A stretch of 64,000 nt of DNA. It comes from an uncultured Candidatus Saccharibacteria bacterium (GTDB lineage: Bacteria > Patescibacteriota > Minisyncoccia > Phycocordibacterales > UBA918). Where the stretch lies: positions 1,521 to 65,520 of the forward strand of contig CAZYTF010000001.1 of the NCBI GenBank assembly GCA_964649535.1, written 5' to 3'. Each line of letters starts with the position of its first letter. The first letter of the stretch is position 1. The position numbers were made by a program, and so were the translations under genes. The notes beneath the pieces are model-generated. The model had not been told where the DNA came from. It searched no databases and saw nothing but the letters and a program-made list of their open reading frames with translations. This document shows positions 6,254 to 43,690 of this stretch, one piece after another.

Positions 6254-6340
6254 ATGATAATTTTTCATTATCCAGTAAGTTTCCTCATTGTGTGTGTTGT
6301 ACTTCTTTTTCTTAGCGCATTAGTTTTGGGACTTATTTAG
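6254..6340 (+). CDS. 28-aa hydrophobic small ORF (MIIFHYPVSFLIVCVVLLFLSALVLGLI)
   Basis: ACAGGAGG ribosome-binding site 5 nt upstream of the ATG, a single predicted TM helix, and a hairpin plus T-run immediately downstream. It is below the 60-aa cutoff of the ORF track. Confidence 0.3.
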   Translation: MIIFHYPVSFLIVCVVLLFLSALVLGLI

Positions 6341-6352
6341 TATAAGTTGATT

Positions 6353-6389
6353 CGCCTGACTAGGCATGCAGCCTGGTCAGGTGCTTTTT
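6353..6389 (+). terminator. Hairpin plus U-run after the small ORF
   Basis: cctgac...gtcagg stem followed by cttttta. Confidence 0.4.
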
Positions 6390-6437
6390 AATAAAATATA
6401 TTTACCAACGCTTCATTCTCCCTTATACTAAGAAGAT

Positions 6438-7043
6438 ATGAAAAAAGTTAACATTCGCGAATCCCTTGGAGTAGGATGGTCACAATTTAAAAAACGGCCA
6501 TGGTACCTCCTCGGGCTCACGCTTGCAGTTGCGGGATTATTTGTAGTAGCTGGCGTTAATGAAGTGGGGGTTACAGCACTTGCCTATATTGTGTACGGTG
6601 GTTTTATAGCGATACTCCTTAAACATTACGCGGGTCAGGTTGTGGAATTCGATGATTTATTTGATATCGATAAACGGTGGGTTTACTTTGCATTCCTTGG
6701 AATAATCAAAACTTTGTTGATAATGCTTGGTTTTCTCTGCTTCGTAATTCCAGGAATCTACCTTTCTGTACGATGGATGTTTGCTGAACTCTTTGTTATT
6801 GACCAAGGAATGCGACCTGTAGAGGCACTCAGAGCGAGCAGCAAGATTGTCGAAGGACACTGGTGGAAGTTATTTTTGTTCAGCATTGCGGGAGTGTTAT
6901 TGGTAGTAGTGAGTCTCTTTGCGTTTATTGTTGGTGCTGTCATTGCGTGGATTGTCATGCATTTTGCAGTAATCAAAATATATAAAAATTTACAACTCAC
7001 TGAAGTATTGGTTGAAACAGAGGCTCCGTATATTGAAAATTAG
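6438..7043 (+). CDS. Integral membrane protein (DUF975-like topology), function unknown
   Basis: 201 aa with 4-5 predicted TM helices and no catalytic motif recognised. Confidence 0.5.
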   Translation: MKKVNIRESLGVGWSQFKKRPWYLLGLTLAVAGLFVVAGVNEVGVTALAYIVYGGFIAILLKHYAGQVVEFDDLFDIDKRWVYFAFLGIIKTLLIMLGFLCFVIPGIYLSVRWMFAELFVIDQGMRPVEALRASSKIVEGHWWKLFLFSIAGVLLVVVSLFAFIVGAVIAWIVMHFAVIKIYKNLQLTEVLVETEAPYIEN

Positions 7044-7046
7044 AAA

Positions 7047-7091
7047 GCACATAAAAAAGCGGCACCTTTGGGCGCCGCTTTTTTATGTGCT
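7047..7091. terminator. Bidirectional intrinsic terminator (17-bp inverted repeat)
   Basis: gcacataaaaaagcggc ... gccgcttttttatgtgc, lying between convergent genes. Confidence 0.6.
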
Positions 7092-7664
7092 TTACACTCG
7101 ACCTGCGACAACTTCCCAGTTGAGGTTTTCAAAGAAAGCATCGATATACTTTTTCTTTTCACTTGGCGGGTAGTCAAGCATGTATGAATGTTCCCACATG
7201 TCGAGTCCGAATACGATGTGCACATCAGCAAGTTGTCCAATGTGTTGCTCGTCCACCCATGTGCAGACAAGTTTGTGTACTGAAGCATCGAAATATACGA
7301 GCACCCAGCCTACTCCTCTCGTCATTGCGGTGCCAGAAACATGGGCAACGAATCCCTCCCAAGAACCATACTGCTCTTCAGCAAGAGTTTTGAAAGTTCC
7401 TTCAGGGACTTCTTTTGCTCCACCTTCAAACTGCTCAAAATAGTATTCGTGGTTTTTCATCCCTCCGAACTCAAATCCAAGACGACGGTTCACTTCAGCG
7501 AGTGCATACGCATTTTTTTCTGAATCTTGCTTTAGTTCAGCAATTTTTTCATGGATAAGATTCACATGTTTTACGTATCCTGCGTAAAGGCCTAAGTGTT
7601 CTTTAATGGTATTCTCTGAAATTCCTTTAAGTTTGGGAATAGTAAATGTTTTTATTTCGTACAT
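7092..7664 (-). CDS. sodA: Fe/Mn superoxide dismutase
   Basis: 190 aa from MYEIKTFTIPKL. The C-terminus DMWEHSYMLDY and the NHxxYF motifs are diagnostic for Fe/Mn SOD. The annotated 302-aa ORF carries a non-coding 5' extension. Confidence 0.9.
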   Translation of the reverse strand: MYEIKTFTIPKLKGISENTIKEHLGLYAGYVKHVNLIHEKIAELKQDSEKNAYALAEVNRRLGFEFGGMKNHEYYFEQFEGGAKEVPEGTFKTLAEEQYGSWEGFVAHVSGTAMTRGVGWVLVYFDASVHKLVCTWVDEQHIGQLADVHIVFGLDMWEHSYMLDYPPSEKKKYIDAFFENLNWEVVAGRV

Positions 7665-31142: not shown

Positions 31143-31496
31143 ATGGCAACATCAGAAAAAAAAGAATCAAAGAAAACAGCAGCATCTGAAATTCAGAAAC
31201 TGCGAATTCGAGTACGTGCATATGAGCACAAGATTCTTGATACAAGTGTAAAGCAGATTATAGATACTGCATTGCGTTTTGACGCAAAAGTTGTAGGTCC
31301 AATTCCGCTTCCGACTGAAATCAAGAAGTACACTGTGAACCGATCATCATTCGTGCACAAAGATGCGCGAGAACAATTCGAAATGCGAACTCATAAACGT
31401 GTTATCGATATCATGAATCCGAGTGCAAAGGTTGTTGAGGCGCTCACTAATCTTTCGCTTCCGTCTGGTGTCAACATCGACGTGAAGATGATGTAG
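31143..31496 (+). CDS. rpsJ: 30S ribosomal protein S10
   Basis: [12 protein letters not shown]...GPIPLPT...RTHKRVIDI. Confidence 0.95.
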
Positions 31497-31644
31497 TAAT
31501 TTCGCCAGAAATAGCGAGTTGCTGCGTTGAACATCGGTAATCAAACGCTCGCCGTACAATACGTACGTCTCGTGTTTGATTCCTCGTTCACCTTGCAGCC
31601 CATCAATTTCTGACAAAATTGTGATAGTTGCTATAGCCAAAAAC

Positions 31645-31679
31645 AAAAAAGTGCGGACCTATGGTCCGCGCTTTTTTGT
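31645..31679 (+). terminator. Intrinsic terminator after rpsJ
   Basis: gcggacc-tat-ggtccgc followed by TTTTTT. A second hairpin lies at about 31700-31735. Confidence 0.6.
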
Positions 31680-32433
31680 GTATACGCATGCAAAAGAAAA
31701 ATCAGCACTTGGGGCCGCTGATTTTTCAAAAAACACATTTCCTCGGCCTGTGGACTTCAGATAATGTATTTGATCGTGTGTGGTGGGAGACCTCTCACTC
31801 TTGCGATTATACCTCCAGCAAGAAGTCAGTGCCTTCCTACGATGCGCTCATAACACCTTTTACAGAGGCGGTAGACTTTAGCAATATTTTTTCAAAATAT
31901 CAGTTAAAGTTTTACAAAGTGCCACCCAGGCACTTTTCACACATCTTACCTTTTATGATGTGTAAAAAGTGCTTTTCTTTCAATAAAAAAGCTCGATGTT
32001 ACATTTTGTGAATGTATAAGCACCGAGCTTCGATTTTTCAGGGTATTGCATTTGGTAGCAAGCACTTTGCTTAACTTTCACCTTGTCAATCCGCCCTGAC
32101 GGGGTCGTGATGGATAGCTTCGTAGGCTACCCATCGGGATCACGGGTGGCGAGGTAATACTCGAAGAGAGAAAGTTCTCCTTTGAAGATGTTTACCACTG
32201 TCGCACGCATAGCCGTACCCCTTTTTTGCAGACAATCGGCACTCTAAAAAATAGAGTTTGGAATCGTGTCTACTATTACAAATTCCGTTACTTACGATAC
32301 TCCTATTCTTTTTGAGACGCAAGTTGTAATATGTAAGTAACCTATTGCAAATAATTGACATTATTCATATATATACTGTATTCTGCATTCTAGAAGTGTA
32401 TCGATTCGTACACAAGCATTGGAGGTATAGGAC

Positions 32434-33549
32434 ATGAAGACACGCTTAATTGAGTTTGGAGTGTTTGTTATTGCAATTGTGCTCATTTGGCATTGGTATG
32501 TTGGTTTGTTTTGGCAACCTTTGTTTTTTGCTGTGCTTCTGGCGGTAACCTTTCATGATTTTTTTGAACGGTTGTGTCGTCAAGTATGGATCAGTGATTC
32601 TATTGCTGCACTGATGGTTGCTATGATTGCGTTGCTGATCCCGGTCATTCCGGCAGTCTTCGCAGTCTACTATTCTATTGGTGTTGCTGATCGTCTGATT
32701 AGTGCACTACGCATACCGACATCGGATGAATATTTGTGGTTGTCAGAAATCGTAACAGAACTTAATGAAAGAGTTCCATTTCTGGCTGAATATCTCCAAC
32801 TTGATGGAGGAGGTATTGATTCGTTTACGAAACTGTTGACGAGTAACTGGAATGGAGTTGCGTCTGTCAGCCGATCAATTATTGGCACTGTATATACAAG
32901 CTTTGCGGGTATAATGTTTGGCATTGTTGTCGCACTCTTGGCTCTCTACTACTTTCTGAAAGATGGGAAGAAGTTGCTTGCTTTCGTAAAAAAGGCAGCG
33001 CCAGTGCGTGTCGAGTTCGTGACTCGCGCATTCGATGAGTTTGTGCAGATGACGCGTGCAATGGTTAAAGTGACCATCATCGTTGGGTTTGTGCAGGGTG
33101 CTATTGGTGGGGCAGCCCTTTGGTTTGTCGGCACGCCGTCTGCACTCATGTGGACATTTGCCATGATGCTGCTTTCCATGATGCCCATACTGGGTGCTGG
33201 TATAGTGCTTGTTCCGACATCAATCATCTACTTCTTCACAGGAGACATGGTGAGTGGCTCGGTTGTGTTGGGGACATTTGCGTTTGTGTCGGTGGTGGAT
33301 AATATCCTGAAGCCGAAAATCATTGGCGGTGATATGTCACTGAATGAAGGTTTGATTTTGCTTTCGGTTGTTGCTGGCTTGGCAACATTTGGAGCTATCG
33401 GCATGTTTGCTGGACCAATTTTGTTTGCATTGCTTACTGCAATGATTGATGTCTATCTGCGCATGGCTAGTAGTACGTTTGAATCTAAGCCGTGGCAGCC
33501 GTATACGCCACCGCCACCTGTTTTTCGTACACACAAACATCGTGTGTGA
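32434..33549 (+). CDS. AI-2E family transporter (PerM/YdiK-like) membrane protein
   Basis: 371 aa with about 8 TM helices and the length and Gly-rich helices typical of UPF0118/AI-2E. Family call from topology and composition. Confidence 0.55.
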   Translation: MKTRLIEFGVFVIAIVLIWHWYVGLFWQPLFFAVLLAVTFHDFFERLCRQVWISDSIAALMVAMIALLIPVIPAVFAVYYSIGVADRLISALRIPTSDEYLWLSEIVTELNERVPFLAEYLQLDGGGIDSFTKLLTSNWNGVASVSRSIIGTVYTSFAGIMFGIVVALLALYYFLKDGKKLLAFVKKAAPVRVEFVTRAFDEFVQMTRAMVKVTIIVGFVQGAIGGAALWFVGTPSALMWTFAMMLLSMMPILGAGIVLVPTSIIYFFTGDMVSGSVVLGTFAFVSVVDNILKPKIIGGDMSLNEGLILLSVVAGLATFGAIGMFAGPILFALLTAMIDVYLRMASSTFESKPWQPYTPPPPVFRTHKHRV

Positions 33550-33793
33550 AATGCAAAGCGTCTGGGATTTATCTCAGGCGCTTTTTACTTGCATATACTT
33601 TGAATATCAGTATACTAACGACCAGCTTTAGAAGACCTATGTTCGGTGATATGTGGCTTGCCACATTGAGAACCAATGGGCACAAAACCGCGTTTTTTTG
33701 CGGGACTTGTGTCCCGCCTAAAACGCGGTTTTGTTTATCCTCTCGAGGGTATCGGGTCTAATAAGGCAACTTTATTAGATAGTTCAAAAATAA

Positions 33794-34414
33794 ATGAAGT
33801 TTATTTTAGGGACAAAGGAAGGAATGACACAGGTGTTTGACGCAAACGGTGTCTGTCACCCTGCAACGATTCTTCGTGTTTCTCCAGCAACTATTACGCA
33901 AGTAAAAACTGCTGAGAAAGATGGATACACTGCAGTGCAGGTTGCATCAGGAGCACAAAAAGAACATCGTGTGAACAAAGCGCAGAAAGGACACCTTGGT
34001 GGCTCTTTTCAACACGTTAAAGAATTCCGACCTCGTACAAATTATGAAGAATCAGTTGATGGTCTTGAAAAAGGTCAAGTGATTGATGCTTCTGTATTTG
34101 AAGCTGGTGATACAGTGGTTGTCGCAGCGATTTCAAAAGGTAAAGGGTTTCAGGGTGTGGTGAAGCGATATAACTTCAAAGGAGGTCCTGCTTCACACGG
34201 CCAGAAGCACTCACATCGAGAACCAGGTTCTATTGGGGCTACAGGTCCAGCTCGTGTATTTAAAGGTATCCGAATGGCAGGACGCATGGGTACTGATAGA
34301 ATTACAGTAAAAAACTTGCAGGTATTGCAGGTTAATAAAGATGAAAATGTATTGCTCATTCGTGGCGCAGTACCTGGTCGAAAAGGAACATTAGTAGAGG
34401 TACGTAACGTGTAA
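33794..34414 (+). CDS. rplC: 50S ribosomal protein L3
   Basis: ILGTKEGMTQVFD...FKGIRMAGRMG. Confidence 0.95.
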   Translation: MKFILGTKEGMTQVFDANGVCHPATILRVSPATITQVKTAEKDGYTAVQVASGAQKEHRVNKAQKGHLGGSFQHVKEFRPRTNYEESVDGLEKGQVIDASVFEAGDTVVVAAISKGKGFQGVVKRYNFKGGPASHGQKHSHREPGSIGATGPARVFKGIRMAGRMGTDRITVKNLQVLQVNKDENVLLIRGAVPGRKGTLVEVRNV

Positions 34415-34418
34415 GTAT

Positions 34419-35111
34419 ATGCATATGGAAACAAAAGTATTCACACAAGAAGGAAAAGAGAGCGGAAAAGTCACACTCCCAGACGCTGTGTTTGGAGTTG
34501 CATGGAACGCTGACCTTATCCACGAGGTGGTTGTCTCTATGCAGAGCAATGCACGGCAAAGTACTGCACACACAAAAGATCGAAGTGAAGTCGCCGGTGG
34601 CGGTAGAAAGCCATGGAAGCAAAAGGGGACTGGTCGCGCGCGACATGGTTCACGACGTTCACCGATGTGGGCTGGTGGTGGTATAGCACACGGACCTCGA
34701 AACGAAAAAGATTACTCCAAGAAGATCAATAAGAAGGTAAAAGCTAAAGCACTTGCCGTAACGCTTTCAAAGAAGTTTACTGACGGAGAAGTTATCTTCG
34801 TAGATGCACTGAGCTTTGAAGCGCCAAAGGCTGCTGATGCAAAAAAGGTTGTTGCAGCACTCGCGAAAGGTTCAGGCAATGAAATGCTTGTATCAAAGCG
34901 AACAAATGCAGCGCTCATTGTGCTTTCAGATCGGGATGAAAACGCTGAGAAGAGTTTTCGTAACTTTGGGAACATGGAAGTCATGCAAGCAAAGGATATA
35001 AATCCAGTCGACCTTCTTACCTATAAGTATGTTGTTGTAGCAAATCCAGCAAAGGCTCTTGAGATGCTTGAGTCACGTATTGGTTCTACACAATTAAGTA
35101 AGTCAAATTAA
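34419..35111 (+). CDS. rplD: 50S ribosomal protein L4
   Basis: [15 protein letters not shown]. Confidence 0.9.
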
Positions 35112-35112
35112 T

Positions 35113-35496
35113 ATGGCACTCTTTAGTCGAAACAAAGAAAAAAACACTGGAGAGAAAAACGCGGCAGCGAACGTGACGAAGAAGCCTGTGGCTTCGAGTG
35201 CACTTCCAACAGATCGCAACCTTTCTGCGGTAATTATTAAGCCTCGTATTACTGAAAAAGCAGCAACGCAAGGCGAACGCAATGTATATACGTTCATCGT
35301 CCGTCGAGATGCAACAAAGTACGATGTGCGGGATGCAGTAAAGGAACTCTTTAATGTGACGCCGGTAAAAGTGAATATCGTCAATAAATCACACAGACAA
35401 TTTATGTCACGAAGTAAGAGTCGAAAAATAACAGAAAAAGGAATGAAAAAGGCATATGTGTACCTTAAGCAAGGTGACCATATTGACCTCGCATAA
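35113..35496 (+). CDS. rplW: 50S ribosomal protein L23 (with N-terminal extension)
   Basis: [10 protein letters not shown]...YTFIV...A.K.DV..AVKELF.V. Confidence 0.9.
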
Positions 35497-35513
35497 CCTG
35501 TAAGAATTATATT

Positions 35514-36365
35514 ATGATAAAAAAATATAAACCAACATCTGCAGGTCGTCGTGACGGTTCTGTTATTGACTATAAAAAAATACTTACGACGACAAGAAGT
35601 AAGCCACTTAAGTCGCTTACAAAAGGGAAGCGCTCAACTGGTGGACGCAATAGTCAGGGACGTACCACAACATGGTACCGTGGGGCTGGAAATAAGCGAA
35701 AGTATCGAGCTGTTGACTTCAAGTTTGAAAAGAAAGATATTGAAGCAAAGATTGAGACAATCGAGTATGATCCATACCGATCAGGATTCATCGCACTTGT
35801 CTTGTACAAGGATGGTGAACGACGATATGTACTTGTGCCACAAGGCATGAAGGCTGGAGACACATTTATTGTGTCAGAAACAGCAAAGGCAAAAACTGGA
35901 AATCGTTTGCCGCTTGCAAACATTCCTGTAGGTACTTACGTGTACAGCATTGAGATGAAGCCGGAAGCTGGTGCTCGTATCGCACGTTCAGCAGGTAACT
36001 ATGCAGAAGTAGTTGCTCATGATGCGGGATACACACAGTTGAAGATGCCGTCTACTGAAATTCGAAAGATTCTTTCTACATGTTGGGCTTCTATCGGTGA
36101 GGTTTCAAACGAAGAACATCGTTTAGTATCTATTGGTAAGGCTGGTCGTGCACGACACATGGGACTTCGACCAAAGACTCGTGGTACTGCAAAAAACGCT
36201 GTGGACCACCCACATGGAGGTGGTGAAGGTAAGTCTCCTCGAGGTCATAAACGATCTCGTACAAAACAAGGTCGTCCAACCGGAAAAGGACAAAAGACAC
36301 GTTCACCGAAGAAACATTCAAACAAACTTATTGTTTCACGACGTAAAGTTGGGAAGCGGCGATAA
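35514..36365 (+). CDS. rplB: 50S ribosomal protein L2
   Basis: IKKYKPTSAGRR...GGEGKSP. Confidence 0.95.
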   Translation: MIKKYKPTSAGRRDGSVIDYKKILTTTRSKPLKSLTKGKRSTGGRNSQGRTTTWYRGAGNKRKYRAVDFKFEKKDIEAKIETIEYDPYRSGFIALVLYKDGERRYVLVPQGMKAGDTFIVSETAKAKTGNRLPLANIPVGTYVYSIEMKPEAGARIARSAGNYAEVVAHDAGYTQLKMPSTEIRKILSTCWASIGEVSNEEHRLVSIGKAGRARHMGLRPKTRGTAKNAVDHPHGGGEGKSPRGHKRSRTKQGRPTGKGQKTRSPKKHSNKLIVSRRKVGKRR

Positions 36366-36383
36366 GAGTAGTGTGTTACACAA

Positions 36384-36411
36384 AAAGCCGGCGCTTTGCG
36401 CCGGCTTTTTG
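36384..36411 (+). terminator. Intrinsic terminator immediately after rplB
   Basis: aagccggcgc-tttg-cgccggctt followed by TTTTT. Confidence 0.6.
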
Positions 36412-36499
36412 TGTATAAAGTGTTGCTACTTTTTTACTAGTTTGACGCAGGATTTTTTCTATATATATTAAAAATACTTGGCAATTGTTCTGCCAAGTA

Positions 36500-36754
36500 T
36501 CACTTCTTCTCCTTCACGCAGAGGAGGGGGCCTTTATGAGCTCTGAGGTATTTTTTATTTTCTGAACACTTTGCCCATGCGCGCATTGATCGCCTTCCGC
36601 GCAGCCAAGCTTCTTTTTCGCTTAGTGCGTTAGTGACGAGGACAACTTCATTGCTCTTGTCGCTGTCAGGAACACGGTCGCCGCTCAAAAGGTCCTGTTT
36701 TATGACCACGGCAACAAAACGTTTTGGTTGTTTGAACGCAATAACATTTTTCAT
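36500..36754 (-). CDS. Small protein (84 aa), possibly toxin-like (weak BrnT-like C-terminal pattern)
   Basis: AGGAG ribosome-binding site. EVVLVTNALSEKEAWL loosely resembles the RIISAR-AT..E..Y motif of DUF497. Confidence 0.35.
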   Translation of the reverse strand: MKNVIAFKQPKRFVAVVIKQDLLSGDRVPDSDKSNEVVLVTNALSEKEAWLRGRRSMRAWAKCSENKKYLRAHKGPLLCVKEKK

Positions 36755-36842
36755 GAGGTTCTCCTAAGAACTTTTTAAATATTCAAACACGTCTATCTAA
36801 ATTTGACAATAGCTGTTGCAAAGTATAAGAGAATCTTCTTCC

Positions 36843-37160
36843 CTATACCCCTGGCTTCCGTTCTCTTTCCTTGAAACTGAAGTTCTGCAGTTTCTTGCTG
36901 TTTTGAAGCGCATGAAACACTTCCCTTGGTTTGTCTGCGTGTACCGCAATTTTTTGGACACTCTGACCTGTGATGATGAGTTCTATGCCGGCTGTTGTGT
37001 ACGCAGCTGTTACAAAGCGAGAGCTTGATCCTTTTCGACTTTGTGTTTTTATCATGCCAGGAGCAATCATTTTGACGCCATTAAGCCGTTTTAGTACAGA
37101 TACAACTAACGCAGCGGTTTCAGTCAGTGTTGTATGTTCTTTTCCACGGGGTTTTGCCAT
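36843..37160 (-). CDS. Hypothetical small protein (105 aa)
   Basis: Basic N-terminus MAKPRGKEH. No Shine-Dalgarno sequence. Weak HU/IHF-like pattern only. Confidence 0.3.
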   Translation of the reverse strand: MAKPRGKEHTTLTETAALVVSVLKRLNGVKMIAPGMIKTQSRKGSSSRFVTAAYTTAGIELIITGQSVQKIAVHADKPREVFHALQNSKKLQNFSFKERERKPGV

Positions 37161-37186
37161 AGGGGGAGCATAGCATAAAAAATGTA

Positions 37187-37222
37187 AAAAAAGCCGCGAA
37201 TTTTCGCGGCTTCACTCTTTTT
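37187..37222 (-). terminator. Terminator downstream of the membrane-protein gene
   Basis: aagccgcgaa-tttt-cgcggctt followed by a U-run on the minus strand. Confidence 0.5.
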
Positions 37223-37227
37223 GTGCA

Positions 37228-37557
37228 TTATCGTTTAAATGCCGGCCACTTTGTGAACAGCGCTTTGAAACTTGTTGAAAAAGCGGTTTCAGATTCGTCT
37301 GATAGTTTCCTCTTATGAAACCATATAATCCAAGCTATTATGGCAAAAATAGAAGATATGAACCAGTATGAAACAAAAACCAAAAATAGTCCTCCGTAAA
37401 GCAGTACGGTACTCGGCCTACGTAACACTTCATTTGTATTTATGTCGTGTAACACTTGGGTAGTCATTGACGCTGCTAACACTAGCAAAAACACCCAGTT
37501 TATAATCAGCCTGACCACATGGTTTTGAGGCATTGCGGAACTTTTTCTCGGTTTCAT
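37228..37557 (-). CDS. Small membrane protein (109 aa)
   Basis: Three predicted TM helices. Confidence 0.4.
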   Translation of the reverse strand: MKPRKSSAMPQNHVVRLIINWVFLLVLAASMTTQVLHDINTNEVLRRPSTVLLYGGLFLVFVSYWFISSIFAIIAWIIWFHKRKLSDESETAFSTSFKALFTKWPAFKR

Positions 37558-37628
37558 GTAAGAACTCCTTTCAATAGTTAGTTAACTCTTTTTCCAGTAT
37601 CGAGTCAAGCCTCTTGTGCTTCAATTTT

Positions 37629-37657
37629 ATTGACTTTTGCCCTTATTTCCCGTACTA
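37629..37657 (+). promoter_or_regulatory. Sigma70-like promoter for rpsS and downstream genes
   Basis: TTGACT, a 17-nt spacer, then TACTAT. About 160-nt leader before rpsS. Confidence 0.4.
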
Positions 37658-37816
37658 TAGCGCACGTTCTAACCTCGTTTTGGATTCGCTCCTGGTAGGG
37701 CAATCCCTAACAAAAACCGTTACACTTTGAGCGTTTTACGCTCGAGGGCAGAATAAAATTATTAGTTTGTGGCTACTGTAAGACCACTGGTTTTTATGTA
37801 GTCGTATTTCATTCTT

Positions 37817-38146
37817 ATGTCACGATCTCTTTATAAAGGGCCGTATGTTGAAGAGAAGCTCCTAAAGAAAATTGCAGGCAAAAAGCCTAGCGATACAGGA
37901 TCTATCAAGACATGGGCCCGTGATTCGGTGATTGCTCCGGAAATGGTTGGCTTCACATTTGGAGTTCATAACGGAAAAGACCATATTGACGTACTTGTTA
38001 CGGAAGATATGGTGGGTCATCGTCTCGGTGAATTTTCACCAACGAAGAAATTTTATCGCCATGGCGGTAAAATGCAGAAAGAGCTTGATATCAAGAAGAA
38101 GGAGTCTGAAATTGCTGCTGCTAAAGCAGCAAAAGCAGCCTCATAA
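37817..38146 (+). CDS. rpsS: 30S ribosomal protein S19
   Basis: [10 protein letters not shown]...HNGKDHI...[10 protein letters not shown]. Confidence 0.95.
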
Positions 38147-38160
38147 CCTAACCTGGATAT

Positions 38161-38484
38161 ATGAAAGCAGTTTTGAAAAACTACCGACAGTCTCCACGTA
38201 AGGTTCGCCTTCTTGCAGATCTCGTTCGAGGAAAAAAAGTAAAGGAAGCTCTTGCATTACTACAGTTTGCTGATAAAAAAGCAGCTGAGCCCTTTGCAAA
38301 AGTTGTACGTTCAGCAGAAGCAAATGCCACTCAGGCTGGAGCAGACGTGAGCAAGTTGATTATCAGCAAAGTGACTGTCGACAAGGGTACGATCATTAAG
38401 CGTTTTATGCCACGAGCACGTGGAAGCGCTTCACGTATCAACAAACGAAACAGTCACATTACCGTTGAACTCGGTACTAAGTAA
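38161..38484 (+). CDS. rplV: 50S ribosomal protein L22
   Basis: YRQSPRKVRLLADLVRGK. Confidence 0.95.
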   Translation: MKAVLKNYRQSPRKVRLLADLVRGKKVKEALALLQFADKKAAEPFAKVVRSAEANATQAGADVSKLIISKVTVDKGTIIKRFMPRARGSASRINKRNSHITVELGTK

Positions 38485-38496
38485 TAAGGAAATTCT

Positions 38497-39216
38497 ATGA
38501 CACACATAGCACATCCGTACGTACAACGACTGGGTATCAACCGTGACTGGAAAAGTCGTTGGTTTACAGCTGACCCAAAGAAGTACCGCGAATATATCCG
38601 CACAGACGCTGCTATCCGAAAGCTCCTTGCAAAGAAGCTCAAGGGTATGTCGATTGATGTGGTAGAAATCGAGCGTGACGAAAAGACACTCCGTGTCCTC
38701 ATTAAAACTGCACGACCAGGACTTGTCATTGGCCGCAGTGGTGAAGGAGCTATTAAGCTTAAAAAGGACGTTGATATGCTTTTGCGTACGCTCAAGCTTT
38801 CAGAAAAACCGGATATTAAAATTGATATTGAAGAAGTTCGTTCTATTGAAACGAGCTCTGCGATTGTTGCCCAAATGATTGTTGAAGGACTTGAGAAACG
38901 AATGCCGTTTCGTCGTGTTTTGAAGCAAACAGTTGAGAAGGCAATGGCAAACCGTGATGTTCAAGGTGTTCGTATTATTGTTGCAGGTCGCCTCGGTGGC
39001 GCTGACATGGCACGACGCGAAGAACTTAAAAAAGGTCGAATCCCCCTACAAACCCTTCGTGCTGACATCGACTTTGCTCGAGAGCGCGCTAATCTTCCGT
39101 ATGGTGTGATTGGTGTGAAGGTTTGGATTTATCGAGGTGATGTGTTTGGCGATCGAAAAGCAGGTCAACAAGAAGAGAAGCGACCAGCTCCACGTCGACA
39201 ACCGCGCAACGTGTAA
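38497..39216 (+). CDS. rpsC: 30S ribosomal protein S3
   Basis: KH domain plus S3 C-terminus (GVRIIVAGRLGGADMARRE). Confidence 0.95.
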   Translation: MTHIAHPYVQRLGINRDWKSRWFTADPKKYREYIRTDAAIRKLLAKKLKGMSIDVVEIERDEKTLRVLIKTARPGLVIGRSGEGAIKLKKDVDMLLRTLKLSEKPDIKIDIEEVRSIETSSAIVAQMIVEGLEKRMPFRRVLKQTVEKAMANRDVQGVRIIVAGRLGGADMARREELKKGRIPLQTLRADIDFARERANLPYGVIGVKVWIYRGDVFGDRKAGQQEEKRPAPRRQPRNV

Positions 39217-39226
39217 CTAACTACGT

Positions 39227-39661
39227 ATGTTATTTCCTAAAAAAGTGAAACACCGAAAGTGGCAAGTGATGCGACAGAGTGAAGAAAAGCGAAACTCGCC
39301 AGAAACACGCGGTGTAACTGTAGCTTTTGGATCATATGGTCTCAAGGCAACTACAGCATCGAGAGTGAAATCAAATCAAATTGAAGCAGCTCGTCGTGTT
39401 ATCTCACGAACACTCGGTAAAACAGGTAAGATTTGGATTCGAATTTTTCCAGACCGCCCGGCAACAAAAAAAGCTGCTGAAGTAGGTATGGGTAAGGGTA
39501 AGGGTGATCCAGAATACTTCATGTTTGAAGTAAGCCCAGGTCGTATTTTATTCGAAGTAGACGGTGTCTCTGAAGACATTGCGAAAGAAGCAATGCGAAA
39601 GGCGGCTGCAAAGCTCCCGCTGAAAGCAAAGTTTGTACATCGTAATGAGACACGTGTGTAA
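39227..39661 (+). CDS. rplP: 50S ribosomal protein L16
   Basis: LFPKKVKHRKWQ...GMGKGKG. Confidence 0.95.
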   Translation: MLFPKKVKHRKWQVMRQSEEKRNSPETRGVTVAFGSYGLKATTASRVKSNQIEAARRVISRTLGKTGKIWIRIFPDRPATKKAAEVGMGKGKGDPEYFMFEVSPGRILFEVDGVSEDIAKEAMRKAAAKLPLKAKFVHRNETRV

Positions 39662-39670
39662 AGTAAACAT

Positions 39671-39889
39671 ATGAGTAACTACAAAGAAATCCAAAAGAAG
39701 AGCGACAAGGACTTGGTAGCACATGTTGCTGAAAAGCGTGAAGAGGCACGAAAGTTCCGGTTTAATGTTGCGGGAGCAGGTACACGAAATGTGCGTGCAG
39801 TCCGAAATGCTAAGAAGGAAATTGCTCGTTCTCTTACAGAACTGAACACACGTTCAAAAAAGACTGAGTCTAACGAGAACTCTAAATAA
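39671..39889 (+). CDS. rpmC: 50S ribosomal protein L29
   Basis: 72 aa helical protein with an L29 pattern. Confidence 0.9.
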   Translation: MSNYKEIQKKSDKDLVAHVAEKREEARKFRFNVAGAGTRNVRAVRNAKKEIARSLTELNTRSKKTESNENSK

Positions 39890-40164
39890 TGCGTATGAGT
39901 AACACAGAACAAGGAGAGGCAACAACTCCAAAAGGTCGCGTATTTCGCGGCACAGTTGTCAAATCTGCGATGCAAGATACTTGCACAGTGGCTGTTGAAC
40001 GATATGTAAAACATCCAAAGTACAAGAAGTATCAGCGACGCACACAGAAATTCCTCGTACATGATGCGGGTAATACTGCAGCAGTAGGGCAAAAGGTCGA
40101 AATTAGAGAGACACGTCCTGTTTCGAAGCGAAAAAGTTTTGAGCTAGTTCAAAACTCCAAATAG
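39889..40164 (+). CDS. rpsQ: 30S ribosomal protein S17
   Basis: RVFRGTVVKSAMQDTCTVAVERYVKHPKYKKY. Confidence 0.9.
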   Translation: MRMSNTEQGEATTPKGRVFRGTVVKSAMQDTCTVAVERYVKHPKYKKYQRRTQKFLVHDAGNTAAVGQKVEIRETRPVSKRKSFELVQNSK

Positions 40165-40167
40165 CCT

Positions 40168-40539
40168 ATGATTCAACCACAATCACTAGTAAAAATCACC
40201 GACAACTCTGGCGGTAAGATTGGCCGAGTATTCAAAGTACTTGGAGGCTCAAAGAAACGATATGCCGAACTCGGTGAGTTGGTAATTCTTTCTGTACAAA
40301 CAGCAGAACCACGAAAGCAAACCAAGAAGAAGGATATCGTGTGTGGCGTTGTTGTACGGCAGAAGAAGCCGTTTCGACGAAAAGATGGTTCATATGTTTC
40401 ATTTGACGATAATGCTGTAGTGCTTATCGACAAAGAGAAAAAAGAACCAAAAGCAAACCGTGTGTTTGGTCCTATTCCTCGAGAACTTTCTGAGGCAGGT
40501 TTTCAAAAAATTGTTTCATTAGCACCTGAAGTTGTTTAG
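40168..40539 (+). CDS. rplN: 50S ribosomal protein L14
   Basis: MIQPQSLVKITDNSGGK. Confidence 0.95.
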   Translation: MIQPQSLVKITDNSGGKIGRVFKVLGGSKKRYAELGELVILSVQTAEPRKQTKKKDIVCGVVVRQKKPFRRKDGSYVSFDDNAVVLIDKEKKEPKANRVFGPIPRELSEAGFQKIVSLAPEVV

Positions 40540-40694
40540 CAAAATAATAATTATAAAATAATTATATATTTTGCTTATGCAGACGTTCAGTAGTTTCGAC
40601 CTTCATAGGGAGAAAATACGTTTACGTCTTGCGTAGCAGTCCAACTTTTAAGAGAAAATGAGATTGTTAAGCAAAATAAGGATATAAAACTATT

Positions 40695-41006
40695 ATGAAA
40701 ATAAAAAAAGGAGACAGCGTAATTGTCATCGCCGGCAAGGATAAAGGTAAGAAGGGGAAAGTACTTCTGACACTTCCTAAAACTGAACAGGTTGTTATTG
40801 AGGGAATCAATGTAGCAACAAAGCACTTGAAAAACCGACGGGTACGCTCACAAGGACAGATTATCGAAAAAAGTATGCCACTGCATGTTTCAAACGTCGC
40901 ACTTGCGATTGATGGAAAAGGCGTGCGTGTGGGGTACACGGTCGAACAAGATGGTGACAAGTCTAAGAAGGTCCGTGTTGCACGTCCTTCAGGTAAGAAA
41001 ATATAA
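40695..41006 (+). CDS. rplX: 50S ribosomal protein L24
   Basis: KIKKGDSVIVIAGKDKGKKGKV. Confidence 0.9.
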   Translation: MKIKKGDSVIVIAGKDKGKKGKVLLTLPKTEQVVIEGINVATKHLKNRRVRSQGQIIEKSMPLHVSNVALAIDGKGVRVGYTVEQDGDKSKKVRVARPSGKKI

Positions 41007-41008
41007 GT

Positions 41009-41563
41009 ATGACTACAACTACAACAGCGACAATGAAAGCCAAGTTGGCAGATACATTTGAGTCACTCAAGAGTGTATTTGGGTACAAGAATGTCATGGA
41101 GGCACCAAAGATTGAGAAAGTAGTTATTTCAACTGGTGTTGGAAAGATTGATGATAAGCACAAACTTGCGCTTATTGAAGATAGGCTTGCAAAAATTACT
41201 GGTCAGAAACCATCGCCACGACCAGCAAAACAATCTATTGCATCGTTTAAGCTTCGTGAGGGAGATATTATTGGGTACCAAGTAACACTACGGGGTGCGC
41301 AAATGAATAGTTTCCTCGACAAGCTTATCCATGTTGCATTGCCACAAACACGCGATTTTCGCGGACTTAACGCATCTGCAATTGATGAAATGGGAAATAT
41401 GACACTCGGTATCAAGGAACATACAATCTTCCCTGAGACTACAAATGACGAACTAAAAGACGTCTTTGGACTTGCGATCACTATCGTAACGACAACAAAT
41501 GATATAAAAGAATCCGAAGCACTCCTTCGATACATCGGCTTACCGCTGAAAAAAGCTGAATAG
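41009..41563 (+). CDS. rplE: 50S ribosomal protein L5
   Basis: NVMEAPKIEKVVIS...REGDIIGYQVTLRG. A Thr-rich N-terminus; an alternative start lies at 41033. Confidence 0.9.
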   Translation: MTTTTTATMKAKLADTFESLKSVFGYKNVMEAPKIEKVVISTGVGKIDDKHKLALIEDRLAKITGQKPSPRPAKQSIASFKLREGDIIGYQVTLRGAQMNSFLDKLIHVALPQTRDFRGLNASAIDEMGNMTLGIKEHTIFPETTNDELKDVFGLAITIVTTTNDIKESEALLRYIGLPLKKAE

Positions 41564-41928: not shown

Positions 41929-42933
41929 ATGACATTTCGTGATAATCACACTAAGCCAGATGAAGGTTTTGAGGGGATTGAACAAAAAATTCTTTCCGAA
42001 TGGCCAAAATATCTTCTGCGTGCAGTACTCGCACTCGGCTTGATTTTTGCAGTTCTCAACAGCTGGTATACCGTCGATAAGGACGAGGAAGCGACAGTCC
42101 GCCGTTTCGGCGCACACATCGCAACCACTGGTCCTGGTCTGCACTTCATGATTCCCTTCGTGGATAAGGTGCAAAACACATCAGTGACAACTGTGCACCG
42201 GATTGAGATTGGTTTCCGCACAACGTCTGTTGAGGACAACACCCCTCAGTATGCAGCGTCTTCTGAAGAAGCTGAGATGCTGACTGCCGACGACAACATT
42301 GCGAACATTGATTTTGTCGTTCAGTACCGCAGCAGCGATGCTGCCAAGTGGCAGTTCAGTGTCATGGATCCAGAAAAGACACTGAATCTCATGGCTCAGG
42401 CTGCAATGCGATTGATTATTGGCCGGTCTGACTTTGACCGGGCAGCAACAATCGGTAAAGCTGAAATTCAAGACGAAGTCCGTGATGTGCTGCAAGCCTA
42501 TTCCGACTCTGTTGAAACGGGCGCGCAGATTGTTTCGGTTCAGCTTCAAGATGTGCAGCCGCCGGCACCTGTTATTGAAGCATTTAAGGACGTGGTGACC
42601 GCTCGTGAAGAGCGTGAGACTCTCGTCCAGGTCGCGAATCGACATGCAAACAGGGTATTGCCGCAGGCACGTGGTGAAGCTGCGCAGATTACAAACTCTG
42701 CAAATGCATACTCAAGCGAGCGTGTTGCAGAAGCTATGGGTGATGTTGCTCGGTTCAATGAAGTTTTGGTTAAGTACCAGGCTTCGCCGGAAGTTACTGC
42801 TCAACGACTGATTTTTGAAACGCAGGAAAAGGTCCTGCGTGGTCAGACAATCGTGGTGGACCCCAGTGAAGGTGGTCTTCTGAAATTCTTCAACATTGAT
42901 GGTTCGGGCATTCCGACCGCAACACAGAAGTAA
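41929..42933 (+). CDS. hflK: SPFH/band-7 protein HflK
   Basis: N-terminal TM helix and an SPFH core (VRRFGAHIATTGPGLHFMIPFVD...). About 52% GC, against about 42% in the flanks. Confidence 0.8.
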   Translation: MTFRDNHTKPDEGFEGIEQKILSEWPKYLLRAVLALGLIFAVLNSWYTVDKDEEATVRRFGAHIATTGPGLHFMIPFVDKVQNTSVTTVHRIEIGFRTTSVEDNTPQYAASSEEAEMLTADDNIANIDFVVQYRSSDAAKWQFSVMDPEKTLNLMAQAAMRLIIGRSDFDRAATIGKAEIQDEVRDVLQAYSDSVETGAQIVSVQLQDVQPPAPVIEAFKDVVTAREERETLVQVANRHANRVLPQARGEAAQITNSANAYSSERVAEAMGDVARFNEVLVKYQASPEVTAQRLIFETQEKVLRGQTIVVDPSEGGLLKFFNIDGSGIPTATQK

Positions 42934-42943
42934 GGGAAACGTT

Positions 42944-43690
42944 ATGACTCATGCTGATACAGCTACTCCTCGACCGCGCCGCCGGATGCGGAACAGAATC
43001 CTTTTGGGGATTCTCCTCGTCGCCATGGTTGGGCTGAAGACTAACCTGACTGTTGTCGATGAGACAGAACGGGCCGCCGTCTTCTTCTTCGGTGACCCTG
43101 TCCGTAATCTTGACGAGCCAGGTGTATACCTGACTCCGTTTTGGCAAACGGTCACCGTCATGGACAACCGCTATCGGTTGTACGATAGCAATCCAAGTGA
43201 AATCATCACTGCAGACAAAAAGACTGTGGTGACTGATGACTTCACGCTCTGGCGTATTGGGGACCCAACTAAGTTTATCCAAGCTGTTGGAACTCCAGCC
43301 TCGGCGCTGAAGCGCATCGATGACGACGTGTTCTCGCAACTCCGTCGCTCTTTTGGGGCACGGAACTATGAAGACATCGTGGTTAACGACCGAGAAGCTA
43401 TCATTGCGACAGTAACTGATCGTGCAGGCCGTACGTTGGCGACAATCTCGATTGATGTCGCCATGGTGCTCACAAACCGTGTTGAGCTGCCGCCTGAAAA
43501 CAAGCAGGCAGTCTACACACGGATGAGTGCTGAACGCCTGCAACAGGCGCAACAGTACCGTTCTGAAGGGGAAGCGGCTCGCTGCACAGAAAGCAGCGTA
43601 ACGTTCTTTAACGCAATACCCGGCGGGAATTTATTCCGCCGGTTTTTTTATACAAAACCATTGACTTTAGGCGTATTTTTGGTACTCTAG
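42944..43690 (+). CDS. hflC: SPFH protein HflC, apparently truncated at the C-terminus (possible pseudogene)
   Basis: TM plus SPFH core (ERAAVFFFGDPVRNLDEPGVYLTPFWQTV). The HflC-like sequence stops near 43590 (..QQYRSEGEAAR); the remaining reading frame runs through an intrinsic terminator hairpin. Confidence 0.6.
   Translation: MTHADTATPRPRRRMRNRILLGILLVAMVGLKTNLTVVDETERAAVFFFGDPVRNLDEPGVYLTPFWQTVTVMDNRYRLYDSNPSEIITADKKTVVTDDFTLWRIGDPTKFIQAVGTPASALKRIDDDVFSQLRRSFGARNYEDIVVNDREAIIATVTDRAGRTLATISIDVAMVLTNRVELPPENKQAVYTRMSAERLQQAQQYRSEGEAARCTESSVTFFNAIPGGNLFRRFFYTKPLTLGVFLVL
43619..43649 (+). terminator. Intrinsic terminator at the island's right edge
   Basis: cccggcgggaat-tt-attccgccgg followed by TTTTTTT. 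Confidence 0.6.

Follow-up and report, generated by a model that had tools for sequence, protein, structure and literature searches.

Why should the S10 ribosomal-protein cluster be interrupted by antisense genes at a junction, rplB|rpsS, that phylogenomic marker sets and binning checks assume never to vary? The interruption lies in a 64,000-nt stretch of DNA from an uncultured Candidatus Saccharibacteria bacterium (contig CAZYTF010000001.1 of GenBank assembly GCA_964649535.1, positions 1,521 to 65,520), which we call the window. Here, rplB and rpsS are separated by 1451 nt (36366–37816) that contain exactly three open reading frames (ORFs), all on the minus strand and encoding 84, 105, and 109 aa. 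A preliminary description of the window had the content of the gap right and took it for an unusual insertion into an ultraconserved junction, in which the 84- and 105-aa genes might form a toxin–antitoxin (TA) pair. We arrive at a different reading. The operon was probably split in an ancient event and has been inherited vertically since, with the 105-aa gene, a member of the DUF2103 family, as a resident of the break, an accessory-gene hotspot around it, and a new leader RNA in front of rpsS; this would be neither a recent insertion nor a TA module.

The evidence that carries this reading comes from relatives. The 105-aa protein has 555 homologues at 62–75% identity, nearly all of them unnamed, and the few with names are "DUF2103 domain-containing protein" from metagenome-assembled genomes of Paceibacterota or Pacebacteria. 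Long contigs with DUF2103 homologues always show rplC-rplD-rplW-rplB, DUF2103 on the opposite strand, and rpsS-rplV-rpsC, with the remaining gap genes varying. A scan of one genome per species returned 78 loci, all in Patescibacteria and including Nomurabacteria, Kaiserbacteria, and Parcubacteria (the Parcubacteria group of NCBI), and a tblastn map of these loci placed an antisense DUF2103 gene between rplB and rpsS in nearly every one with enough flank. Because the antisense gene occupies the junction in essentially every relative recovered, the gap is not peculiar to this genome. Its dimensions are elastic, with 230–4400 nt from rpsS to DUF2103 and 73–5000 nt from DUF2103 to rplB, and rearrangements occur among the 78 loci: rpsJ adjoins DUF2103 in six, and in one rpsS is not found within 8 kb. 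The gaps of the closest relatives hold DUF2103 with one unrelated ORF (L171) or DUF2103 alone (L172). The preliminary description had named conservation of the small genes across relatives, under housekeeping annotations, as the observation that would speak against it. Such conservation is found for the 105-aa gene, annotated as DUF2103 or hypothetical rather than as housekeeping, and is not found for the 84- and 109-aa genes.

As an unbiased control, metagenomes were scanned with S19 alone as the anchor, yielding 80 loci. In 22 of these the arrangement is canonical, with rplB within 150 nt of rpsS; at least 23 have a rplB–rpsS gap of 200–4285 nt from which DUF2103 is absent, and five carry an antisense DUF2103 gene in the gap. 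Among the 50 loci that show both genes, rplB and rpsS lie more than 150 nt apart in at least 28. These counts make the junction a frequent breakpoint in this radiation, and the break is not the rarity it was supposed to be. When S19 and L22 were compared with those of DUF2103-positive genomes, the positives were 87–94% identical and all others at most 71%, except for locus L121 at 79%; judged by these identities, the DUF2103 gene and the leader mark one clade. The window belongs to this clade, which falls in the Parcubacteria/Paceibacteria of the Patescibacteria, or Candidate Phyla Radiation (CPR). We propose that the S10 operon of the clade broke at the rplB|rpsS junction at an early date and has since been passed on vertically in this state. 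The fixed core would comprise the opposite-strand DUF2103 gene, with its own extended −10 promoter and a leaderless mRNA, and, on the rpsS side, a sigma-70-type promoter with a structured leader that contains an invariant CCGUUAC.

Against PF09876, the 105-aa protein of the window reaches 22.0 bits (E 1.5e-4), just short of the Pfam gathering cutoff of 22.4, and the family is matched by 32 of its 32 aligned relatives (best E 8e-8). In hhalign, the profile of this subfamily aligns with distant DUF2103-like proteins of ∼100 aa over 93 columns (99.4% probability, E 7e-22), the two sets having in common the motifs H-T-T, P-G-x-I, and S-x-Q with an invariant Gln. By these matches and motifs the subfamily belongs to the same family as PF09876 (DUF2103, "predicted metal-binding protein", COG4031); it has no cysteines and hence no obvious metal site. 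Literature on COG4031 is limited to a remark on its phyletic distribution in Halobacteria and methanogens. DUF2103-like domains have been proposed as nucleic-acid-targeting effectors in defense systems, namely Menshen and settings of type III CRISPR (PMC12065111), and the DUF2103-like domain of Menshen NsnC likewise has no known structural homologue. Compared with PF09876 and NsnC, the window subfamily is tight, highly conserved, and confined to one CPR clade, lacks cysteines, and is standalone in a ribosomal cluster with no defense or CRISPR context. The defense-effector literature is compatible with RNA binding by DUF2103 but at odds with the housekeeping pattern of the 105-aa gene. AlphaFold2 (AF2) predicts an α-β4-α-β topology with basic, disordered N- and C-terminal tails (predicted local distance difference test, pLDDT, 83). 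A PDB sequence search with the family profile gave chance-level matches only (E 0.8), and the protein does not match the HU fold or Bac_DNA_binding; more generally, the BrnT/DUF497 and HU-like identities suggested for the small proteins drew no matches in Pfam, NCBIfam, PADLOC, or PHROGs.

The 105-aa protein is basic, as previously stated (pI 10.7), and strongly conserved. The mean column identity of the family alignment is 71%, and over 43 loci the mean identity of DUF2103 (58.5%) is on par with that of L23 (58.1%), compared to 78% for L2 and 82% for S19. Its charge, its ribosomal-protein-level conservation, and its location suggest an RNA- or translation-linked role. We picture the protein as a small RNA-binding, translation-associated factor, which could act in trans as the ligand of the leader or could simply be trapped between selected blocks. 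One could go further and regard it as a lineage-specific ribosomal protein or ribosome-associated factor that is kept in the cluster for gene dosage or co-regulation. Its small size, basic tails, L23-like conservation, and fixed site inside a ribosomal-protein cluster in 78 genomes are what one would expect of such a protein, and weak, nonsignificant fold resemblances to eL38, RsfS, and S6 point in the same direction. We nevertheless hold this to be quite unlikely, because the gene runs antisense to the cluster from a separate promoter, the protein has no significant similarity to any known ribosomal protein, and the distant DUF2103 relatives are standalone proteins.

The arrangement of the 84- and 105-aa genes resembles that of type II TA systems such as BrnT/BrnA, MazEF, and VapBC: both are small and basic, adjacent, and co-oriented, and, as far as their sequence goes, they form one transcription unit. 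Since the 88-nt spacer between them lacks a terminator and the only terminator lies past the 84-aa ORF, the two are probably co-transcribed. A TA or defense islet inserted in the operon would also find precedent in the effector role proposed for DUF2103-like domains (PMC12065111) and in the MazE+PIN pairs that occupy the same gap in five relatives. Against it, no toxin, antitoxin, or defense family is matched, the 84-aa ORF has no homologue, and the pair is absent from all relatives. There is thus no recurrence of the pair with a patchy or mobile distribution; the 105-aa gene is instead position-fixed, vertically inherited, and conserved like L23, and it keeps its place next to unrelated neighbors or none. 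By tblastn, the window DUF2103 protein had no matches in a phage collection, and P0163, a distant family member, had none in a plasmid collection. We therefore consider a TA or defense islet very improbable. Modules that by sequence are genuine TA systems do land in the gap of relatives and are unrelated to the window ORFs; in L075 (7592–8011), L085 (3923–4180), and three more loci, the rpsS–DUF2103 spacer contains genes for a MazE/AbrB antitoxin and a PIN toxin.

Clustering of the gap ORFs from relatives gives secreted PG_binding_1 proteins (18 loci), a membrane protein of the YdjM family (14), repeated surface proteins (12), and MazE/AbrB with PIN (five). Because these neighbors are recurrent and not universal, the junction appears as an accessory-gene hotspot around one fixed gene. 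In the Kaiserbacteria-type loci L073–L076, L079, and L084–L088, the YdjM-family protein (∼200 aa, Pfam E 7e-8), located in the ∼600 nt ahead of DUF2103, ends 1–8 nt inside the DUF2103 start. The overlap of the YdjM-family stop with the DUF2103 start, across the 14 loci, implies translational coupling, and the YdjM-family protein is a possible functional partner of DUF2103. The 109-aa ORF of the window was considered as a YdjM-like protein and rejected, being unrelated to those that precede DUF2103 in the 14 relatives; nor is it related to the ORF that takes this position in the closest relative. In the window, the variable slots on the two sides of DUF2103 would be filled by the 84-aa ORFan downstream, which would be co-transcribed with it, and by the 109-aa ORFan, with a promoter and terminator of its own.

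These two ORFs each match only themselves among 5.8 billion proteins, and neither has a family, defense, phage, or PDB match (Pfam, NCBIfam, PADLOC, PHROGs, PDB); for the 109-aa ORF there is a sub-threshold match to DUF4064 only. The latter was described as a membrane protein with its own terminator, and we find both the two hydrophobic helices and the hairpin. The single-sequence AF2 model of the 84-aa ORF (pLDDT 46) is unusable for a fold search, and the idea of a BrnT fold was tested by sequence comparison. One may ask whether these ORFs are genes at all or whether one or both of the spacers are noncoding remnants of earlier cargo. The lack of homologues, the low AF2 confidence for the 84-aa ORF, and the omission of the 109-aa ORF from public annotations would be explained in this way, and six public copies of the gap, all 100% identical to each other, provide no polymorphism with which to test selection, so that no ratio of nonsynonymous to synonymous substitution rates can be obtained for either ORF. 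We think it unlikely, however, as both ORFs have an ATG, a strong AGGAG at 7–8 nt, and dedicated terminators directly past their stop codons, and two hydrophobic helices stand out clearly in the 109-aa ORF. A Shine–Dalgarno sequence precedes only 10 of 49 gene starts in the window even by a lenient test, and at many starts a −10 box directly adjoins the start codon; the gap ORFans are among the few window genes with a strong AGGAG. Because they combine this signal with an ATG and terminators where most window genes have no Shine–Dalgarno sequence, the 84- and 109-aa ORFs look like real but foreign genes. Public calls for L001–L005, from the same organism as the window, include the 84- and 105-aa genes and not the 109-aa gene despite its Shine–Dalgarno sequence and terminator. 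The 109-aa protein is in the database solely from two short ENA contigs.

The DUF2103 gene is preceded by a different kind of start. Its extended −10 box ends 6 nt before the ATG, and this spacing, with no Shine–Dalgarno site, leads us to infer a leaderless or near-leaderless mRNA. The same layout is seen in relatives: of 81 distinct ones, 51 have a TGnTAnnnT that ends 6–11 nt short of the DUF2103 ATG (background 1.1%), and 3 have a Shine–Dalgarno-like sequence. In the window, a TATACT/TATAAT-like box stands 5–8 nt before the ATG in many of the 49 genes, which suggests that leaderless mRNAs are widespread here; the leaderless start would then be a genome-wide habit, not peculiar to DUF2103.

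On the plus strand, the order is tuf, rpsJ (31143–31496), a break, rplC-rplD-rplW-rplB (33794–36365), the gap, and rpsS...rplE (37817–41563), in which rpsS is followed by rplV, rpsC, rplP, rpmC, rpsQ, rplN, rplX, and rplE; downstream of rplE come two Band_7 genes and then rpsH and further genes. The strong terminator reported after rplB is indeed present (−32.1 kcal/mol, z −10.0), and none of 200 shuffled sequences folds as well. Transcription of rplC–rplB would end at this bidirectional terminator, the minus-strand units would be insulated by terminators of their own, and rpsS...rplE would be a separate unit. A candidate −35 for the 109-aa gene lies back-to-back with the rpsS promoter and was missed by the promoter scan. 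Feature coordinates are collected in Table 1.

Table 1. Features of the interrupted rplB|rpsS region (window coordinates; a dot marks features assigned to no single strand)
Feature	Position	Strand	Evidence or remark
rplC	33794–34414	+	
rplD	34419–35111	+	
rplW	35113–35496	+	
rplB (L2), final gene of the rplC-rplD-rplW-rplB unit	35514–36365	+	Pfam Ribosomal_L2_N/L2_C, E 1.8e-31 / 1.8e-48
Bidirectional intrinsic terminator of the rplB unit	36377–36415	.	Perfect 18-bp stem, A5 upstream, U5 downstream
Terminator of the DUF2103/84-aa transcription unit	36473–36501	−	Terminator scan; −14.5 kcal/mol, z −4.8
84-aa ORFan, basic, pI 10.1	36500–36754	−	AGGAG Shine–Dalgarno 7 nt before ATG; variable cargo
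105-aa DUF2103-family protein, basic, pI 10.7	36843–37160	−	Conserved resident of the rplB|rpsS junction
Extended −10 box TGCTATGCT of the DUF2103 gene	37167–37175	−	6 nt before ATG; no Shine–Dalgarno; right after the upstream terminator
Terminator of the 109-aa gene, bidirectional hairpin	37190–37213	.	Terminator scan; −17.3 kcal/mol, z −4.65; immediately upstream of the DUF2103 promoter
109-aa ORFan, two hydrophobic helices (two transmembrane segments)	37228–37557	−	AGGAG Shine–Dalgarno 8 nt before ATG; variable cargo
Candidate −35 (TTGACT) of the 109-aa gene	37603–37608	−	Putative, read off the sequence; back-to-back with the rpsS promoter
rpsS promoter TTGACT-17-TACTAT	37630–37658	+	Promoter scan
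rpsS 5′ leader, conserved structured RNA, type II form	37664–37816	+	
Leader 5′ element CGUUCUAACCUCG	37665–37677	+	
Leader P2 hairpin	37677–37711	+	CUGGUA loop 37692–37697
Leader invariant CCGUUAC	37717–37723	+	In junction
Leader P3 hairpin	37727–37745	+	Variable sequence
Leader GAGGGCAGAAU	37744–37754	+	
rpsS (S19), opening gene of the rpsS...rplE unit	37817–38146	+	Pfam Ribosomal_S19, E 3.2e-32

The restart of transcription at rpsS from a sigma-70-type promoter with a long leader (∼150–160 nt, more closely ∼152–158 nt, before the ATG) holds up, and the leader proves to be conserved well beyond the window. In most loci a TTGACn-17-TAsTAT promoter is followed directly by GCsCGUUCYnAACCUC, and the strict pattern of promoter plus 5′ RNA element is found in 36 of 72 distinct relatives' loci. 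In 70 of 80 loci (duplicate contigs counted), the motif CCGUUAC(Y) lies no farther than 600 nt ahead of rpsS, and 8 of the 10 others carry GCCGUUAAC or GGCAGUUACC, which brings the motif or a close variant to 78 of 80. Leader length in relatives ranges from 119 to 435 nt (median 253), and many rpsS leaders contain a hairpin whose loop reads CUGGYAG. The leader comes in at least three architectures, all with CCGUUAC. Elsewhere in the window, CCGTTAC occurs at chance frequency (8 sites versus 4.4 expected), and the site inspected, at 32285, lacks the surrounding leader elements. The large insertion in one relative, L014 (∼7060–7430, minus strand), of ∼240 nt between the conserved 5′ element and the rest of the leader, indicates that the leader tolerates such interruptions.

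Covariation supports a folded RNA in two of the variants. In the type I leader, the commonest form (34 sequences), the heptamer forms the loop of a two-helix hairpin; compensatory changes are seen in 7 of the 10 pairs of P1, with 97% of cells paired, and in 8 pairs of the hairpin. The covariation score is 0.335 compared to 0.202 in shuffles (0/500), and slid controls reach at most 0.195. In type II, the form present in the window (13 sequences), 8 of the 14 pairs of P2 are compensatory and covariation is 0.396, compared to 0.188 in shuffles (0/500). The leader 5′ element and GAGGGCAGAAU could pair with each other, and both strands are invariant. A type I covariance model returned one strong match per locus (42–86 bits), always on the rpsS strand and just upstream of rpsS, and nothing else scored in 1.07 Mb. 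No Rfam 15 family matches the leader, the 5S and other models included. Mimicry of 16S rRNA (968–990 region) or of 5S rRNA by the leader is a speculative lead only.

The leader is, on this evidence, a new candidate ribosomal-protein leader. In classical leaders, a protein binds the 5′ untranslated region and represses the operon, as L4 does with the S10 leader of Escherichia coli. The rpsS leader shares with such elements its conservation, its covariation, its place in the 5′ untranslated region of a ribosomal-protein operon and only there, and its start directly at a conserved promoter. It differs from known ribosomal-protein leaders in sequence and structure and in preceding rpsS, which in model bacteria lies within the S10 operon. 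By analogy, the leader probably mediates feedback control, in which rpsS...rplE would be repressed through a protein bound to this region. A survey that described 20 ribosomal-protein leader candidates reported none before rpsS in these bacteria (Eckert & Weinberg 2020, PMC7247131).

The presence of gene and leader in one junction invites a more specific proposal, that DUF2103 regulates rpsS...rplE in trans by binding the CCGUUAC leader, and so takes over, for the distal half of the operon, from control by L4 and the S10 leader. The protein is basic, the motif is found in 5/5 DUF2103-positive loci compared to 1 of ∼57 negative loci, and gene and leader are confined to the same clade. This co-occurrence is, however, one phylogenetic event, and L121 has the leader without a neighboring DUF2103 gene; for these two reasons the idea stays speculative. 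The distance between gene and leader varies, and known leaders bind ribosomal proteins of their own operon (PMC7247131). We regard such a regulator as improbable. A broader form, in which a non-ribosomal, RNA-binding DUF2103 protein and the leader make up a clade-specific circuit that sets distal-half S10 expression by binding either the leader or the ribosome, is to us a long shot as well. L121, a metagenome relative, has the rpsS promoter and a GGCCGUUACC leader (6254–7000), and its 748-nt rplB–rpsS gap holds an unrelated 110-aa ORF instead of DUF2103; the DUF2103 gene may have been lost or relocated.

Another account leaves DUF2103 unlinked to translation: a housekeeping gene would have landed in the break once and been retained between two strongly selected blocks. 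Its opposite orientation, independent promoter and terminator, and varying distances on both sides are natural under this account. So are the unrelated genes that fill other breaks of the cluster (an AI-2E transporter at rpsJ–rplC, Band_7 genes at rplE–rpsH) and the genomes in which rpsJ or the rplB block has moved relative to DUF2103. On the other side, the position persists down to 45% protein identity while the surroundings turn over. The account is hard to tell from the alternatives without experiments, and we rate it as rather unlikely.

Returning to the ancient split with its resident gene and leader, which we prefer, several observations weigh against it. Common descent accounts for the co-occurrence of DUF2103 and the leader, and L121 retains the leader with no DUF2103 gene nearby. 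As the DUF2103 gene is carried on the opposite strand and can be as much as 4.4 kb away from rpsS, it does not strictly qualify as the divergent partner of the leader. The sole literature on DUF2103-like domains describes defense effectors (PMC12065111) and points away from a ribosomal role. Public annotation of the same contig lacks the 109-aa ORF, and the promoters, the leaderless start, termination, and DUF2103/84-aa co-transcription are all predicted from the sequence.

Multigene insertions between ribosomal operons have been described in Gammaproteobacteria and Bacilli (PMC8046335, PMC6735719). As far as those accounts go, the present case resembles them in that a conserved cluster of translation genes is interrupted by unrelated genes with its overall order kept, and differs in that the break lies inside the S10 operon, the resident gene is antisense, and a promoter and leader of its own have been acquired. 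The unknown gene in a ribosomal cluster from the AGNOSTOS paper was also considered; that case concerns rpsF–rpsR in Gammaproteobacteria and is irrelevant here.

The CPR, or Patescibacteria, make up a large uncultured share of bacterial diversity; their ribosomes are reduced, and few of their regulators are known. Ribosomal-protein operons with leaders are known as a kind of system, and this one is a new example. Of interest here are the clade-wide antisense resident gene in the S10 cluster, the new rpsS leader with good covariation outside Rfam, and the accessory-gene hotspot. Contrary to its use as an invariant marker, the rplB–rpsS junction is a recurrent breakpoint. DUF2103 and the leader offer handles on how ribosomal proteins are coordinated after the loss of a single S10 transcription unit, and the DUF2103 gene could gain its first functional context. 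Were the circuit of DUF2103 and leader true, the synthesis of ribosomal proteins in the reduced translation apparatus of the CPR would be under a new kind of control in trans, and DUF2103 would have its first function. The variable slots beside DUF2103 may serve for strain typing.

Other parts of the cluster in the window are also loosened. The rpsJ–rplC break (31497–33793) holds a 116-aa ORF with no family match (31661–32011) and an AI-2E family transporter (32434–33549; Pfam E 6e-42), and an AI-2E transporter is found at the same break in the relative L009/L010. Between rplE and rpsH, the two Band_7/SPFH genes (41929–43690) have a G+C content of 0.50–0.54 compared to ∼0.43 around them, which suggests a foreign origin; in the relative L172 a Band_7 gene also adjoins rplE. 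The genes rplN and rplX, normally tightly linked, are parted by a 155-nt AT-rich spacer (40540–40694; G+C 0.32–0.36). Finally, a 244-nt region 5′ of rplC (33590–33793) contains nested inverted repeats, for example aaaaccgcg...gcgggacttgtgtcccgc...cgcggtttt, and could be another ribosomal-protein leader.

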